From a virus (lineage: Duplodnaviria > Caudoviricetes), in the IMG/VR virus record IMGVR_UViG_3300020045_000192, positions 1-35,722 of that record: a stretch of DNA of 35,722 nt; one strand, given 5' to 3'. The notes beneath the pieces are model-generated. The model had not been told where the DNA came from. It was given only the letters and a program-made list of their open reading frames with translations, and ran no database searches. Position numbers and translations under genes: made by a program. How positions within the stretch are numbered: the first letter of the stretch is position 1; each line of letters begins with the position of its first letter. Positions 105 through 13,573 of this stretch are shown here, piece after piece.

Positions 105-1308
105 CGCCAGCGGCAGCAGCCATCACGCCAGCTTGAGGCGGTTCAGGTTGCAGACGTTGTGGCACAGGCGCAGGGCGGCCTTCAATGTCTGTTTGCTTGT
201 AACGCAAGACAGGGAAGGACTTGATGTTTGCTTGCGCCCAATCGTTTTCGTGGCCTTCGTCTTGACCTTCAGCCAACAGCCATTTGGCCTTTGGAGCCAA
301 TGCAACGCCTTCTGTAATAGAAGTCTGCCAGAAGTTATACATGCGCTGCGGGTCTTTGGCATAGCGAATCATGCCGAACTTCTTGCGCTTGTCACCAATC
401 ACGATATGGCGACCATACACAGGAACGATTGGGATGTAACGACCAGCCCATGAACCTTCTTCCACCACATCGTTTGCTGTCAGCTTGCAATATTTGATGG
501 TTTTCTTGTAAGAATCGCGTGAATCAATGACAGTAATTTTTGCAGCAGCCAAACGAGCAAAGAAGTCTTTGTCATCAGAGAAAGTGCTTGAGCCATCGCT
601 TAATTGGTACAAAGTGGCTTTTTCACGCACTGTGTAGTAATACTCAGCGAGGCGAATATCCTCTTTGGTAATCCACTCTGATTGGCTGTCACCTGTGCCG
701 CGCTGTGTGAACGATGTGCCGCCATCAACAGAAGCCTTTGGATAGAGCTTTGAAAACTCTTTCTTGGGCATCATTGTTGTAATCAAGCAACGGTCAGCGT
801 CAGAGCCATCAGGAGCCACAGAATTAGGGTCGAAATACACAGTGAACGGATTGTCCACAGGGTCAATGAAGATTTCTTGATCGAACGAATCTTCAGAAAC
901 GTAATCTGTGCGAACGCGCATAAAGCCCCAACCCATGCGAACAGCGTATTCAAAAGCGTTGTCATAAGCGTGGTCAGCGTTGGAATTGACTTCAATGTGA
1001 CGGATGATGCCTTGCACCACTTGCGCGTCAACCATGTCCTCTTGCGTGTTCATTGCATGGACTTTGATGCGTGGGCGTTGCTGGCGCTGTTGGTTACAGA
1101 CTTGGCGGCAATAGTTATCCACCTTGTTCACCGTAATGACAGGGCGTGATTCCAGATTGCGTGAGTTCTGCAACTCTACGGGCCATTGGTCGCCACCACC
1201 AAATTTCAGGTCTTCAAGCGCCTCTTGGCGGTTCATTGTGTCGGCATCATTTGCCAATTTCAAGAACTCAATTGCTTCTTGAATCCGTGGGTCGTAATCG
1301 TCTGCCAT
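105..1308 (-). CDS. Portal protein, P22 gp1-like, N-terminal ~400 aa (partial; absent from ORF track because it runs off the edge)
   Basis: Manual translation MADDYDPRIQEAIEFLKLANDADTMNRQEALEDLKFGGGDQWP...RP.ITVNKV...RQQRPRIKV; AGGA RBS; directly downstream of terL. Confidence 0.9.
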
Positions 1309-2634: not shown

Positions 2635-2709
2635 TGGCTCCTCAACGTGGGGTCGAACCACGGACCAACAGATTAACAGTCTGCTGCTCTACCTCTGAGC
2701 TATTGAGGA
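2635..2709 (-). tRNA. tRNA-Asn (GTT) with encoded CCA
   Basis: TCCTCAA-TAGCTCAGAGGTAGAGC-A-GCAGA-CTGTTAA-TCTGT-TGGTC-CGTGG-TTCGACC-CCACG-TTGAGGA-GCCA folds as a canonical cloverleaf. Confidence 0.96.
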
Positions 2710-5595: not shown

Positions 5596-6050
5596 ACGAT
5601 TTCCACCACATCTTTCCCGTGACTTTTAATGTAATTGGCGGTCTTACGAATCATCTTTTCGTATTCTGACCGTGGGATGCTGGTGCGCTGAAGGTCGTGA
5701 AACTCCCACACATCCTTGATTGCCTTGATTCCTGCGCCTGACAAGCCCATCTTTTTGGTTTCTTGATAGCGTTTGGCAGATTCCAGCATAGCAGCCTGGG
5801 CTTCTTGGCAATACGGCAGGACTTCAGGGCCAATATTAGCTTTGCCCATTGTTTCGGCAATGTTGATAACATCAGCAAGCCAGCGCCAATCTTCTGTTGT
5901 TCCCTTGCCTTTGGTCATTGCGTCAATGGCTGAAAGCTCACAAAGTCGCAGTTTGTCCAATGATTGCTTGTCAGACACAGCAGCGCCAGCGAGTCCATGA
6001 GCCAAACTGTTTAGTAATGGATAAACTTTTCTTCGACATTTTTTACGCAT
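5592..6050 (-). CDS. Hypothetical phage protein
   Basis: Coupled ORF starting MRKKCRRK. Confidence 0.7.
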   Translation of the reverse strand: MRKKCRRKVYPLLNSLAHGLAGAAVSDKQSLDKLRLCELSAIDAMTKGKGTTEDWRWLADVINIAETMGKANIGPEVLPYCQEAQAAMLESAKRYQETKKMGLSGAGIKAIKDVWEFHDLQRTSIPRSEYEKMIRKTANYIKSHGKDVVEIV

Positions 6051-6528
6051 GACGTGCAAACTCCTTGTGACATTCTTGCCTAAAATTTTTTATTGCATTA
6101 GCTGCATCTTCAATATTTTTAAAATAACCAACAACTTTTGGTTTTCCATAAATGTTTAATTTTGCAACCCATCGTTTTTCTCTTGCATACCAAGAAACGC
6201 CTTTGTAACCAGATTTGTTTGTTACTTTTATGCCTTGATTCCAATTGTTTTGTGACTGATTGCATTCACGCAAATTTTCAATTCTGTTATCAAGAGGATT
6301 GCCATTGATGTGGTCAATTTGTTTTGGCATACAACCATAATGCAACAACCAAACAACTCGATGGTTGTAATATTTTTTACCCTTAAAAGAAAAATATTTG
6401 TATCGTCTAAGGTCGCCATTTCCAACAATGGTTCCTTTTATTGATTTTGTTGATGTTGTGATTTTTCGTTTTAACTCGCCATTAGGCAAATATTCTAAAA
6501 GCTCATTGACTTTTTCATAGGTCAGCAT
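6043..6528 (-). CDS. HNH homing endonuclease with AP2-like C-terminal domain
   Basis: HRVVW...IDHINGNPLDNRIENLR...N..N...SGYKGVSW; AT-rich DNA. Confidence 0.92.
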   Translation of the reverse strand: MLTYEKVNELLEYLPNGELKRKITTSTKSIKGTIVGNGDLRRYKYFSFKGKKYYNHRVVWLLHYGCMPKQIDHINGNPLDNRIENLRECNQSQNNWNQGIKVTNKSGYKGVSWYAREKRWVAKLNIYGKPKVVGYFKNIEDAANAIKNFRQECHKEFARHA

Positions 6529-6562
6529 GATGAATCTCTCATGTTACGAATCATTAAAGGTT

Positions 6563-6610
6563 GTGGCAGGCAGTGATTCAATCTGCTTTTCCCCCGCTAA
6601 AGGTAGCCAC
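6563..6610 (-). ncRNA. c4-like three-way-junction RNA upstream of the HNH gene
   Basis: GUGGC-UA-CCUU(UAGC)GGGG-GAAAA-GCAG(AUUGAAUCA)CUGC-CU-GCCAC. Confidence 0.6.
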
Positions 6611-9110: not shown

Positions 9111-9213
9111 CTAAGTCGCCTGTCAGTTCAAGTGCTTTGTTGATTGTGTCTAGATTATAAGACAGATTATCCTTGATTCCATCTAAAACTTCTCTTGCTT
9201 GCAATAAATTCAT
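9001..9213 (-). CDS. Hypothetical protein
   Basis: ATGA-coupled to the upstream gene; ALELTGDL motif. Confidence 0.55.
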   Translation of the reverse strand: MNLLQAREVLDGIKDNLSYNLDTINKALELTGDLDGFQPSIRATSGASDKDGFAEGLDTLCQETGARLGR

Positions 9214-9593
9214 GGCTCGTAGCTTTTCCGCAACGCTGCAAGTTTTGCAAGTGCTTCAGCCTTAACTCGCTCACCTTCTGCAATTTCAGCCTGAGTTTTT
9301 TGTCGCGTAATAGCAACAACAGGCTTATCAGGAATGTTTGGCCCTGCATTGCACATCTCGCGGAAAGTTACTGCGCTCGGTGGAAACTCACCTTTAAGGT
9401 GGGCTAAAGCATAGTCAAGGCTTGGCTTGTAAGTCAGGAATCGACCAAGACGCTCTTTCCATACCTGGCGAATGATTTGCGGGTCTACGTTTTGCCAGTT
9501 GGTTTCAAACCTAGCGCCATATATTGCGTTCATCGTGCTGAAGATGTAGTCAAATCCAGAATCAGCATCACAGAAGTCGTTTTGGTTCCACAT
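9210..9593 (-). CDS. Putative helicase loader (lambda P-like position)
   Basis: IF..M.AIYG.RF...W and FPPS...F..MC motifs; follows the initiator gene. Confidence 0.6.
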   Translation of the reverse strand: MWNQNDFCDADSGFDYIFSTMNAIYGARFETNWQNVDPQIIRQVWKERLGRFLTYKPSLDYALAHLKGEFPPSAVTFREMCNAGPNIPDKPVVAITRQKTQAEIAEGERVKAEALAKLAALRKSYEP

Positions 9594-10365
9594 TTGGAAT
9601 CTCCTCAAGAACAGTTACAGGTTGTGACCAGAATGGTTGTGGCTTTGGCGTTGACATTCCACGGGTCAACTGAGCCATGTGGTTTTGACGCTTGTCGGCA
9701 GTAGATTGTTTCTTTTCAACCCAATCAGCTTCAAAACTAATCCAGTTCTTTAAACAGCAATGACTGATTGCTTGCTCAATAGGCCAGCCAGCTTTTTCAG
9801 CCTGGTTAATAAACTTCTTCCATCCTGTTTCTGTAAGTGTCTTTGCCTTCTTGTCCTTGCGAACAGTCATCCAATCATTCCAAACTTGCTGGTCAACAAA
9901 ATCAGGACAAGCAACGCTAGTTGCGTTCTTCTCTTTCTTTTTAATGTTTGAAGGTGAAGGTGAAGGTGATGTGCTATCTGCCGAGCATTGCTCCGAGTAT
10001 GCTTCGACTATGCTTGGAGCATTTTTATTACCCCAACGAGCCTGTGCGCCCTTCAATCCACGCTCTTTGTTGGCTTTTTTGTTGTGATTGGCTTTGACCA
10101 TCTCATTTTCAACACGCGATTGAAACCATGCTCCATCTTGTATTTCAAAGAATGGCTCAAGCATAGTCCGAGCATTAGCCCAAGCATCAGGTGAAAGTTT
10201 TGTAATCTGAGCAAGGACTGCATCATTGTCAGGCGGCGCACCGCTTTTCCAATAGTCCATCAGCAAGAGCAAATAAGCCCCGTGTTGCTCAGTAGTCAGC
10301 CGTGAAGTGGCAGACAAATAATCCGCAATGTATAGCGGCATCCATATATCAACTTTTGTAGCCAT
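9568..10365 (-). CDS. Replication initiator, YdaU/DUF1376 family
   Basis: WMPLYIADYL..T..LT.EQHGAY.LLL..YW; G.KGA.ARW; SPSPSPS linker; C-terminal W.DW...RK domain. Confidence 0.85.
   Translation of the reverse strand: MATKVDIWMPLYIADYLSATSRLTTEQHGAYLLLLMDYWKSGAPPDNDAVLAQITKLSPDAWANARTMLEPFFEIQDGAWFQSRVENEMVKANHNKKANKERGLKGAQARWGNKNAPSIVEAYSEQCSADSTSPSPSPSNIKKKEKNATSVACPDFVDQQVWNDWMTVRKDKKAKTLTETGWKKFINQAEKAGWPIEQAISHCCLKNWISFEADWVEKKQSTADKRQNHMAQLTRGMSTPKPQPFWSQPVTVLEEIPNVEPKRLL
9982..10190. repeat. Putative replication origin: two inverted clusters of AGCAT-core iterons
   Basis: Repeats at ~11-12 bp period in 9982-10022 and 10158-10190; GACTATGCTTG (10006-10016) is the reverse complement of CAAGCATAGTC (10158-10168). 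Confidence 0.6.
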
Positions 10366-10392
10366 AAGGCTTTCTCCGCAAACTCCCTGAAA

Positions 10393-10458
10393 GAAACAAG
10401 CGGCAGGGGGGGAGTACCCTTTTCGGTTTGGAGATCAGGCCAAACCTAGCCGTGTTTC
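10393..10458 (-). ncRNA. c4-like three-way-junction RNA in the leader of the initiator gene
   Basis: GAAACA-CGGC-UA-GGUUUGG(CCUGAUCU)CCAAACC-GAAA-AGGG(UACUCCCC)CCCU-GCCG-CU-UGUUUC. Confidence 0.7.
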
Positions 10459-10463
10459 AAAAC

Positions 10464-10491
10464 ATTATATCTTGAGAAGAATCAGAATCAA
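10464..10491 (-). promoter_or_regulatory. sigma70 promoter for the c4-like RNA and initiator
   Basis: TTGATT-16 bp-TATAAT just upstream of the RNA 5' end. Confidence 0.6.
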
Positions 10492-11141: not shown

Positions 11142-11297
11142 TTAAAACCATTCAGGGCGTATCAACTTGAGCTGCCAGATACGGTGCTTTGGTATTCCAT
11201 CGCGTTTCCATATCCAAACAGCGCCTCTTGTTACGCCCAATAGACGGGCAAGCTCACTCTGTGAGCCAGCGTTCTTGATAAGCTGTGTGATAGTCAT
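11142..11297 (-). CDS. Cro-like HTH regulator
   Basis: GSQSELARLLGVTRGAVWIW...IP..R..QL...RPEWF; first gene of the leftward arm. Confidence 0.85.
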   Translation of the reverse strand: MTITQLIKNAGSQSELARLLGVTRGAVWIWKRDGIPKHRIWQLKLIRPEWF

Positions 11298-11400
11298 GGC
11301 GCAAGTGTATAGATATTTTGACAAAAATACAACATAAAGCAAATATTTTTTTATTTCTTGATTGTGTTTTGATAAATCGGTCTAAATTGCTATACACTTC
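11298..11400. promoter_or_regulatory. Divergent early promoters sharing an inverted 10-mer
   Basis: Minus: TTGTAT-17-TACACT; plus: TTGATA-18-TACACT; AAGTGTATAG (11303-11312) and CTATACACTT (11390-11399). Confidence 0.65.
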
Positions 11401-12195: not shown

Positions 12196-12230
12196 TTGAG
12201 CAAGGGCATCTTGTGTGATACGATGTGAGC

Positions 12231-12725
12231 ATGATTACAAAACATGACCTCATTGAATTGTTTGATGTTTATTCAGATGAAGGAAAATTTGTCTGGAAGA
12301 ACGTATCAAAACATCACAAACGTCTTAATGGACAAGAAGCAGGATGCCCTGCCGTCAATCAAAATGGAAAAATTTACTGGAACATAAAAATCAACAACAA
12401 ACGATACAAACGTAGTCGATTGATGTTTCTTTATGTTTATGGTGAATTTCCAAATCCATGCGTTGACCACATCAACGGCAACTCTCTTGATGACAGGATT
12501 GAAAATCTTAGAGAAGCAACTGTTATTGAAAACGCATGGAATCACAAAAAAAGAAAAAGAAGAATTGATTTGCCAATGGGTGTGAGAAACATGGCAAATG
12601 GAAAATTCCAAGCAAGGATTAGCTACAAAGGTAAGCAATTGCATCTTGGGGTGTTTGATACACCAGATGAAGCAAAAGCGATTTATGAAACAAAACGAAA
12701 GGAACTTTATGGAAAATTCGCTTGA
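12231..12725 (+). CDS. HNH homing endonuclease with AP2-like domain
   Basis: VDHINGNSLDDRIENLREAT..EN..N...LPMGV...HLG.FDT; AT-rich DNA. Confidence 0.9.
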   Translation: MITKHDLIELFDVYSDEGKFVWKNVSKHHKRLNGQEAGCPAVNQNGKIYWNIKINNKRYKRSRLMFLYVYGEFPNPCVDHINGNSLDDRIENLREATVIENAWNHKKRKRRIDLPMGVRNMANGKFQARISYKGKQLHLGVFDTPDEAKAIYETKRKELYGKFA

Positions 12726-13353
12726 GATTACTCAGGGAAGTGATGCTTGGTTTGCTCAACGACTGGGCAAAGTGACTGCAAGCCGTGTTGCTGACGTTAT
12801 CGCCAAGACAAAGACGGGTTACAGCACCAGCCGTGACAACTACATGGCTCAGTTGGTCTGTGAGCGTATGACCAACACCGTAGCCGAATCCTATTCAAAT
12901 TCAGCTATGCAATGGGGTACTGAAACAGAACCATTGGCTAGGGCGGCGTATGAAGCCCATGCTGACGTTTTAGTGGATGAAGTTGCCATGATTACCCATC
13001 CAACGATTGAAGCCGCTGGCGCTTCTCCTGACGGGCTTGTGGGTGATGTTGGACAGCTTGAGATTAAGTGTCCCAATACGGCAACGCACATTGACACCTT
13101 GTTAAGCCAAACAGTGCCAGGCAAGTACAACACCCAAATGCAATGGCAAATGGCTTGCACTGGTCGCCAATGGTGTGACTTTGTATCGTTTGACCCACGG
13201 TTGCCCACAGAACTTCAATTGTTTGTAAAGCGCGTTCCCCGTGATGCTGCTTACATTCAAATGCTTGAAGAAGAAGTCAAAAAGTTCTTGGTTGAACTCG
13301 ATGGCAAAATTACGAAACTTAACGAACTGAAAGAAAAAAATGGAAACTCGTGA
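12709..13353 (+). CDS. YqaJ / lambda-exonuclease family recombinase
   Basis: QGS..W...RLGKVTAS, MQWG...EP.AR, ASPDGLV, EIKCP and QMQWQM motifs. Confidence 0.93.
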   Translation: MENSLEITQGSDAWFAQRLGKVTASRVADVIAKTKTGYSTSRDNYMAQLVCERMTNTVAESYSNSAMQWGTETEPLARAAYEAHADVLVDEVAMITHPTIEAAGASPDGLVGDVGQLEIKCPNTATHIDTLLSQTVPGKYNTQMQWQMACTGRQWCDFVSFDPRLPTELQLFVKRVPRDAAYIQMLEEEVKKFLVELDGKITKLNELKEKNGNS

Positions 13354-13573
13354 AATGACTTATGGTGAAAAAGCGGTTGGTTTGACATTTAACCCAAGCA
13401 ATGATGATGCAGTTGCGCAGTGCAAACAAGAATTTGCTGCTGTTATTGACAGAATGAACAATTTGCGCAATCAAACAGACAATACTGAAGTAAAGCGCAT
13501 GGCAAGTGTTGCAATCACAGAAGCTCAAACAGCGCAGATGTGGGCAGTAAAAGCAATCACTTGGAAATTTTAA
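13340..13573 (+). CDS. Acb2/Vs.4-like helical-hairpin protein (putative cyclic-nucleotide sponge)
   Basis: 77 aa, two helices, C-terminal R.ASVAITEAQTAQMWAVKAI. Confidence 0.55.
   Translation: METREMTYGEKAVGLTFNPSNDDAVAQCKQEFAAVIDRMNNLRNQTDNTEVKRMASVAITEAQTAQMWAVKAITWKF

Follow-up and report, generated by a model that had tools for sequence, protein, structure and literature searches.

The CI RNA of phage P4 is grouped with the c4 RNA as a three-stem phage RNA in which a loop pairs at a ribosome-binding site (RBS). The Rfam family int-alpA (RF02996, type Gene; sRNA), which also has three stems, joined by the junction strands UA, GAAAA and CU, is reportedly one of the RNA candidates of Weinberg et al. 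2017. The c4 RNA of P1/P7, about 77 nt long, is released when RNase P cleaves a precursor, and it places two loops, a' and b', on their targets (excerpts of PMC5320573); c4 is also listed in a table in the available part of PMC2864571. In the IncI-alpha plasmid ColIb-P9, a pseudoknot between a loop and the leader, located upstream of the RBS, governs the translation of the initiator repZ and thereby copy number (excerpts of PMC8383071). Self-complementary loops, including the GACG tetraloop, pair identical RNAs in retroviral kissing-loop dimers, and natural functional RNA homodimers are described as rare (excerpts of PMC7357161). A literature search, made mostly without subscription papers, found no study of int-alpA function; the word alpA is absent from the available main text of PMC5737381, and in the accessible portions of two other papers int-alpA is mentioned as a table entry (PMC12370729) and as a gene-order label (PMC13612085).

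The window analyzed here is a whole virus record of 35,722 bases, with a CheckV completeness estimate of 100%, and its relatives come from freshwater and aquatic metagenomes. The gene content includes P22-like head and tail genes, Erf, an exonuclease, NinB and several HNH genes. A tRNA gene at 2638-2709 (-), whose anticodon GUU was read from the alignment, sits between the terminase subunit genes, and the 77-aa product of 13340-13573 (+) has an Acb2/Tad1 hairpin domain (E 3.4e-10) and probably serves as a nucleotide sponge against host defence. The ORF at 10365-9568 probably encodes an O-like replication initiator, to judge from its protein matches (Table 1). Inverted and direct repeats lie within this gene at 9960-10021, with a 13-pair hairpin at 9989-10021, and, by analogy with lambda O, might mark an origin of replication.

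The leader in front of the initiator gene is the subject of this study. The initial annotation regarded it as an RNA-only switch controlling the initiator in a phage that has no protein repressor. Every motif letter that it quoted was found in its place on the minus strand, and on the whole its observation was partly confirmed and its interpretation partly supported. Control of translation by RNA only is probably right, but the absence of a protein repressor was too strong a claim: a Cro/YdaS-type HTH gene is present, though neither a CI-type repressor nor an integrase was matched in the 56 ORFs scanned (of 169). The leader is presumably transcribed from a sigma-70-type promoter, with a predicted start at about 10458-10456, roughly 7 nt past the -10 box. 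Promoter-like sites in themselves were not above chance in number (four against 3.6 in shuffles); among viral family leaders, a TAnnnT hexamer was present 5-14 nt upstream in 97/120, against 17/120 in a control window. The Shine-Dalgarno (SD) sequence GGAGA stands 7 nt ahead of the initiator ATG at 10365 (minus strand).

Table 1. Positions of the leader parts, their targets and the neighboring genes in the window
Feature	Position	Strand	Details
Predicted sigma-70-type promoter	10464..10491	-	TTGATT-16-TATAAT; TTGATT 10491-10486, TATAAT 10469-10464; 10/12
Outer extension P1b	10458-10454 with 10397-10393	-	P1 and P1b together span 10393..10458
Stem P1	10452-10449 with 10404-10401	-	
Junction strands	10405..10448	-	UA 10448-10447, GAAAA 10424-10420, CU 10406-10405; conserved int-alpA core
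Hairpin P2	10425..10446	-	7 bp, 22-nt arm; 8-nt loop L2 at 10439-10432
Self-complementary 4-mer GAUC at the L2 tip	10433..10436	-	Predicted kissing site between two molecules
Hairpin P3	10407..10419	-	Loop L3 UACUCCC (10416-10410), reads the leader
Target t1, GGGAGU	10382..10387	-	6 bp with L3, -9.4 kcal/mol; predicted pseudoknot upstream of the ribosome footprint
Shine-Dalgarno GGAGA, containing target t2 (GGAG)	10373..10377	-	4 bp with L3, -5.9 kcal/mol
Predicted replication initiator	9568..10365	-	DUF1376 N-terminus; PHROG primosomal protein matches
Weak P-like helicase-loader match	9210-9608		Next after the initiator gene
Cro/YdaS-type HTH gene	11142-11342	-	Divergent early-promoter region
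Second leader copy	6526..6610	-	Short-P2 class, before the HNH gene; int-alpA 30.3 bits
Second-copy loops	L2 6599-6596; L3 6582-6574	-	L2 UAGC; L3 AUUGAAUCA
Second-copy targets	t1 6553-6548; t2 6536-6531	-	t1 UGAUUC; t2 GAUUCA
HNH endonuclease gene	6043..6528	-	Second leader copy in front

The proposal of a three-way-junction RNA at the predicted transcription start was borne out, with three stems (P1-P3) that covary. It is this covariation, that is, comparative evidence and not the stability of the fold, by which we judge the junction to be real. The predicted minimum-energy fold of the leader is a three-way junction; its folding energy is not unusually stable against shuffles (z -0.37 and -1.14) and is uninformative, and a pseudoknot-blind ensemble gives pairing probabilities of 0.3 for P1 and 0.99 for P2. 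Homologs of the initiator were found at 41 loci, and the same fold was recognized by eye in 36 of the 38 upstream regions inspected. In an alignment of 28 hand-picked long-arm leaders, 88.8% of the stem cells are paired, against 71.9% when shuffled, and 14 of 21 stem pairs have changed on both sides. P1 is paired in 99.1% of its cells and P2 in 92.3%, with five of the seven P2 pairs changed on both sides; the lower value for P1b (65.7%) arises since the alignment is out of register there. Across the family, P1 has a median of nine pairs, with 9.0 from a leader's own flanks and 7.0 from swapped ones. In the stems G-U outnumbers A-C by 27 to 13, which modestly favors the sense strand.

The best Rfam match of the leader is int-alpA, over the full length of the model (1-71) at 30.2 bits, below the gathering cut-off of 35.8, with E-values of 0.017 against the library and 3.9e-6 against the single model. 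The leader has the three stems and the junction of that family (C-UA-G, C-GAAAA-G and C-CU-G), and in this phage it stands 5' of the initiator and an HNH gene, in keeping with a location upstream of phage and mobile-element genes, a feature (before integrases and the like) read from the family name. In the int-alpA consensus, too, the final part of the model complements L3, and L2 contains ACGU. The short P2 of int-alpA (4 bp, 5-nt loop) is replaced here by an arm of 22 nt; among 141 family leaders, 52 have a long arm and 86 a short one. Because both the formal score and the short P2 failed, the leader was filed as a variant, and on these sequence comparisons it is a long-armed, divergent int-alpA. 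The same model matched 19 of 20 hand-picked family loci at E<=1, nine of them above the cut-off. It stops at t1, the first target of L3, and leaves out t2 and the RBS; a description of the pseudoknot with t1 may already exist in the supplement of PMC5737381. At one family locus, L100, an Rfam isrJ match (1112-1188 (+), 39.5 bits) was located just upstream of the family pattern match at 1201.

The c4-like identity first given to this RNA did not survive. The models of c4 (RF01695) and c4-2 (RF02944) had no match at E<=10 in the phage's own record, none at E<=5 in a whole-library Rfam scan and none in the 20 family loci; since the covariance models are without a match and the second loop does not read a target, membership of c4 or c4-2 was rejected. 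PK-repZ likewise gave no match in the whole-library scan.

The family was gathered by fixed junction patterns and its sequences are related, so that the counts are not independent events. By our estimate the pattern is present in some 3,800 stretches of viral, 7,300 of metagenome and 1,300 of genome sequence, and a variant of it in 2,600 viral stretches. Enterobacter phage Tyrion is a cultured phage with a member of the family. A stem-only filter was passed by 96/117 distinct viral and 77/117 metagenome matches, and by 32/120 genome and 25/119 variant matches; given these low pass rates, the genome and variant estimates consist mostly of chance matches. The genome matches that passed are titled Proteobacteria, Planctomycetota, Bacillota, Chloroflexota, Acidobacteria and Nitrospirae, among others. 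Of 57 downstream proteins hand-picked from 136, 26 act on DNA (12 HNH, five integrases, five initiator-type proteins, two antirepressors and two Dam methylases), one is a peptidase and 30 are without a Pfam match. The leader is also present on one RNA-library contig, although such presence does not show transcription.

Loop L3 was compared with the tail that follows it in 115 distinct loops of 5-12 nt, taken from 177 leaders, with swapped tails as the control. Complementary 4-mers peak twice, at tail positions 13-17 and 26-29. A site of at least 5 bp was found for 106/115 distinct loops (24.3 with swapped tails) and a second one of at least 4 bp for 95/115 (15.0 with swapped tails). A metagenome hold-out restricted to new loops (n = 44) gave 39 against 8.6 for the first site and 36 against 5.7 for the second. 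The ribosome footprint extends from about -20 to +15 around the initiation codon. Both sites are present in 128 of the 163 leaders followed by an ORF, and there the median position relative to the start codon is -23..-18 for t1 and -11..-6 for t2; t1 is thus just outside the footprint and t2 on the SD. As t2 overlaps the SD, part of the signal from C-rich loops is shared SD sequence, some of which the swapped-tail control absorbs.

These results support one of the pairings originally suggested for the leader and not the others. The match of loop ACUCCC to GGGAGU belongs to a class far above chance, with an L3 site of at least 5 bp in 78/80 same-size leaders against 25.5 with swapped tails. The match of loop CCUGA to UCAGG (10390-10386, minus strand) is a chance one: the 5-mer at this loop position has its complement in the leader's own tail in 8/80, against 5.4 ± 2.1 when swapped, two leaders (L029 and L426) share the CCUGAUCU loop without UCAGG, and six leaders with UCAGG have other loops. 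The supposed contact of UCUCC with the SD is likewise a chance match, the 5-mer at that position having a complement in its own tail in 0/80, against 2.1 ± 1.2 when swapped, and the SD is matched by L3 instead (CUCC:GGAG). The idea of two loops reading the leader and RBS therefore holds for L3 and fails for L2, whose apex is complementary in 14/80, against 16.1. The rest of the genome was also scanned for a second target of the joined loops; TCAGGGAGT with one mismatch had three matches, against 4.9 expected.

L2 has a different property. With eight loop types longer than 10 nt dropped and shuffled loops as the control, the tip carries a self-complementary dinucleotide in 39/41 distinct loops (17.4 shuffled) and a palindromic 4-mer in 28/36 loop types of 5-10 nt (4.6 ± 2.0 shuffled), the 4-mer being missing in the other eight; only 2/107 L3 loops have the same palindromic property. 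The palindrome register was picked after the first set had been seen, and the clean test is the hold-out of 12-13 new loops, from which four leaders with long loops were dropped; with the register preset, it gave the dyad in 12/13 (against 4.1) and the 4-mer in 9/12 (against 1.3). Eleven of the 16 possible 4-mer palindromes occur among the family's L2 loops. The absent ones are UUAA, GUAC, CUAG and AUAU, all four with a central UA step, and UAUA. In the alignment, two adjacent columns at the center of L2 are complementary in 28/28 rows (AU 19, GC 9). A copy of the L2 4-mer was no more frequent in the leader's own flanks than by chance (35/126 against 33.1). The best duplex of L2 with its own tail measured 3.29 bp, and 3.31 bp in the control (41 loops); in all, three tests placed the pairing of L2 with the tail or the SD at chance level. 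Because adjacent bases cannot pair within one loop and no partner was found in the flanks, L2 pairing is likely between molecules, and the simplest reading would be that two identical molecules pair through it. Anticodon mimicry by L2 was dropped as a candidate, the varied loops sharing self-complementarity and not a codon. The GACG tetraloop occurs in 11/177 leaders, and the short-loop classes GACG and UAGC have a 2-nt dyad. In MoMuSV a GACG loop forms a kissing homodimer of 2 bp (excerpts of PMC7357161).

The element could also act as DNA instead of RNA, as an operator, a methylation site or a single-strand hairpin, since some loop 4-mers, GATC among them, coincide with methylation or restriction sites and many of the downstream genes act on DNA. 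We consider this highly improbable, as the eleven palindromes vary and lie mostly off the inverted-repeat axis of P2, t2 tracks the RBS, the element begins right after the -10 box, and G-U exceeds A-C in its stems.

Considering the two loops together, we propose, with a probability of about 0.5, that this is a cis-acting int-alpA-type leader in which kissing dimers would move L3 from t1 to the RBS and so limit initiator dosage. In a lone transcript, L3 would rest on t1, which is closer than t2 and in most cases stronger, so that the SD would stay free and the gene ON. At higher transcript levels, the palindromic L2 loops of two leaders would form a kissing pair, and in this dimer the L3 of either leader would move to t2 within the RBS of the other, turning translation OFF. 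The dosage of initiators, nucleases and integrases would be limited by such a switch. The parts of this model differ in strength. Translational control by the leader is quite probable, because one loop has two targets and one of them is on the RBS. That dimer formation is the input to the switch is favored by a slight margin; transcript concentration is suggested as the input because L2 self-pairs, and the weakness of a kiss of 4 bp or 2 bp counts against it.

The two alternative pairings of L3 would be enough for a switch that works purely in cis, with a protein, a junction ligand, temperature or ribosome traffic as the driver and L2 as a structural or protein-binding element. Strong conservation of the junction nucleotides from phylum to phylum is in line with this possibility, as is the pseudoknot control of an initiator known for repZ (excerpts of PMC8383071). 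Such a switch, however, leaves the palindromes unexplained, in which eleven 4-mers covary at adjacent positions that are unable to pair within one loop, and we regard it as rather unlikely.

With regard to the sign of the proposed dimer switch, an OFF dimer is moderately preferred to an ON dimer. Whether P2 is short or long, t1 lies practically equally far from the junction (14 and 15 nt), which is what an intramolecular contact predicts; of the two targets, t1 is transcribed earlier and pairs more strongly in 93/141 leaders, and an excess of the controlled genes would be costly. Against an OFF dimer, the weaker t2 must displace the stronger t1, as the energies for this leader indicate (Table 1). 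The opposite arrangement would place L3 on t2 in the monomer (OFF) and on the partner's t1 in the kissing dimer, freeing the RBS, and would amount to a threshold switch that turns genes on at a high transcript level or upon co-infection. The passage from a weak site in cis to a strong one in trans would then be downhill, and the short free linker between P1 and t1 (median 5.5 nt) may put t1 too close to the P1 foot to be reached in the monomer; late or co-infection expression would also suit homing endonucleases and integrases. A t1 distance that stays constant despite a twofold change in P2 is nevertheless hard to reconcile with a rigid trans contact on a 5-nt tether, and t1 is transcribed first, so that we hold this arrangement to be unlikely, if slightly less so than the purely cis switch. 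The spacing between t1 and t2 did not grow with the length of P2 (11 against 13 nt), and the geometry thus bore no mark of pairing in trans.

Processing of the kind known for c4 has little room here. Because transcription probably starts about 7 nt after the -10 box, the predicted start coincides with the 5' end of P1b, and there would be no upstream precursor for RNase P to cut. A loosened c4-like model would have a short RNA of about 60-65 nt, terminated or processed so that it lacks t1 and t2, acting in trans by docking on the full mRNA via L2 and blocking t2 with its free L3. At least five U in an 8-nt window after P1, resembling a weak terminator, were found in 92/153 leaders, a free L3 would need no strand swap, and c4 loops do pair at an RBS (excerpts of PMC5320573). 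The U-run is, however, missing in 61/153 leaders and partly paired into P1b in the long-P2 class, a terminator scan made no call at the site on the minus strand, similarity to c4 is absent and L2 does not read the tail; this model is accordingly improbable. A universal terminator after P1 was rejected on the same U-run count.

The second leader copy of the phage, in front of an HNH gene, has the same design as the first with wholly different letters in L2, L3, t1 and t2, and no further copy was found in the whole record. A second, related HNH gene at 12225-12725 (+) has a -10-like box right before its start and is without such a leader. In one contig (run X2) both flanks are kept and 10370-10444 is replaced by 74 other letters, in another (X19) the leader is retained at 89/90 letters and is followed by different sequence from the gene start, and identical L3 loops occur with different L2 loops. 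These swapped modules and the mixing of L3 with L2 show that the leader module reassorts as a cassette between related phages, which would fit the specificity role raised as a possibility in the initial annotation. Among 164 loci there are few phages with several copies; L2 differs between the copies in this phage, L035 and L037 and is shared in L550, so that L2 types are not always orthogonal. A 56.9-kb contig carrying two initiator homologs with near-identical leaders (L001 and L014) may be a chimeric assembly.

In summary, the comparative case for an unusual mechanism in a long-armed variant of an orphan family is strong, as far as sequence comparison goes. If the model is right, int-alpA gains a testable mechanism, and the leader illustrates a way in which initiator levels could be metered in a phage that lacks a CI-type repressor. 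As a concentration sensor it would be compact (about 90 nt) and re-programmable, controlling replication initiators, homing nucleases, integrases and antirepressors, and its swappable loop/target pairs would keep phages or genes from cross-talk. More tentatively, and somewhat short of an even chance, it could be a widespread phage leader that senses its own concentration via a kissing loop, an autoregulator that needs neither protein nor antisense RNA. Regulation of a bacterial or phage mRNA leader by self-dimerization did not come up in our literature search, made mostly without subscription papers.

Compared with the systems described above, the leader resembles c4 of P1/P7 in being a three-stem phage RNA with a variable loop that pairs at an RBS and with possible specificity types. 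It differs in the use of its loops: L3 has two targets downstream, and L2 is complementary to itself. The control of repZ involves a separate antisense Inc RNA, whereas the model proposed here needs none and has a three-way junction and two alternative targets; near the leader no opposing promoter-like site was found, the nearest on the plus strand (10293-10322, 9/12) being inside the gene. Finally, retroviral dimers serve genome dimerization and packaging, whereas the dimer predicted for this leader would act on translation, both in phages and in mobile elements of bacteria.
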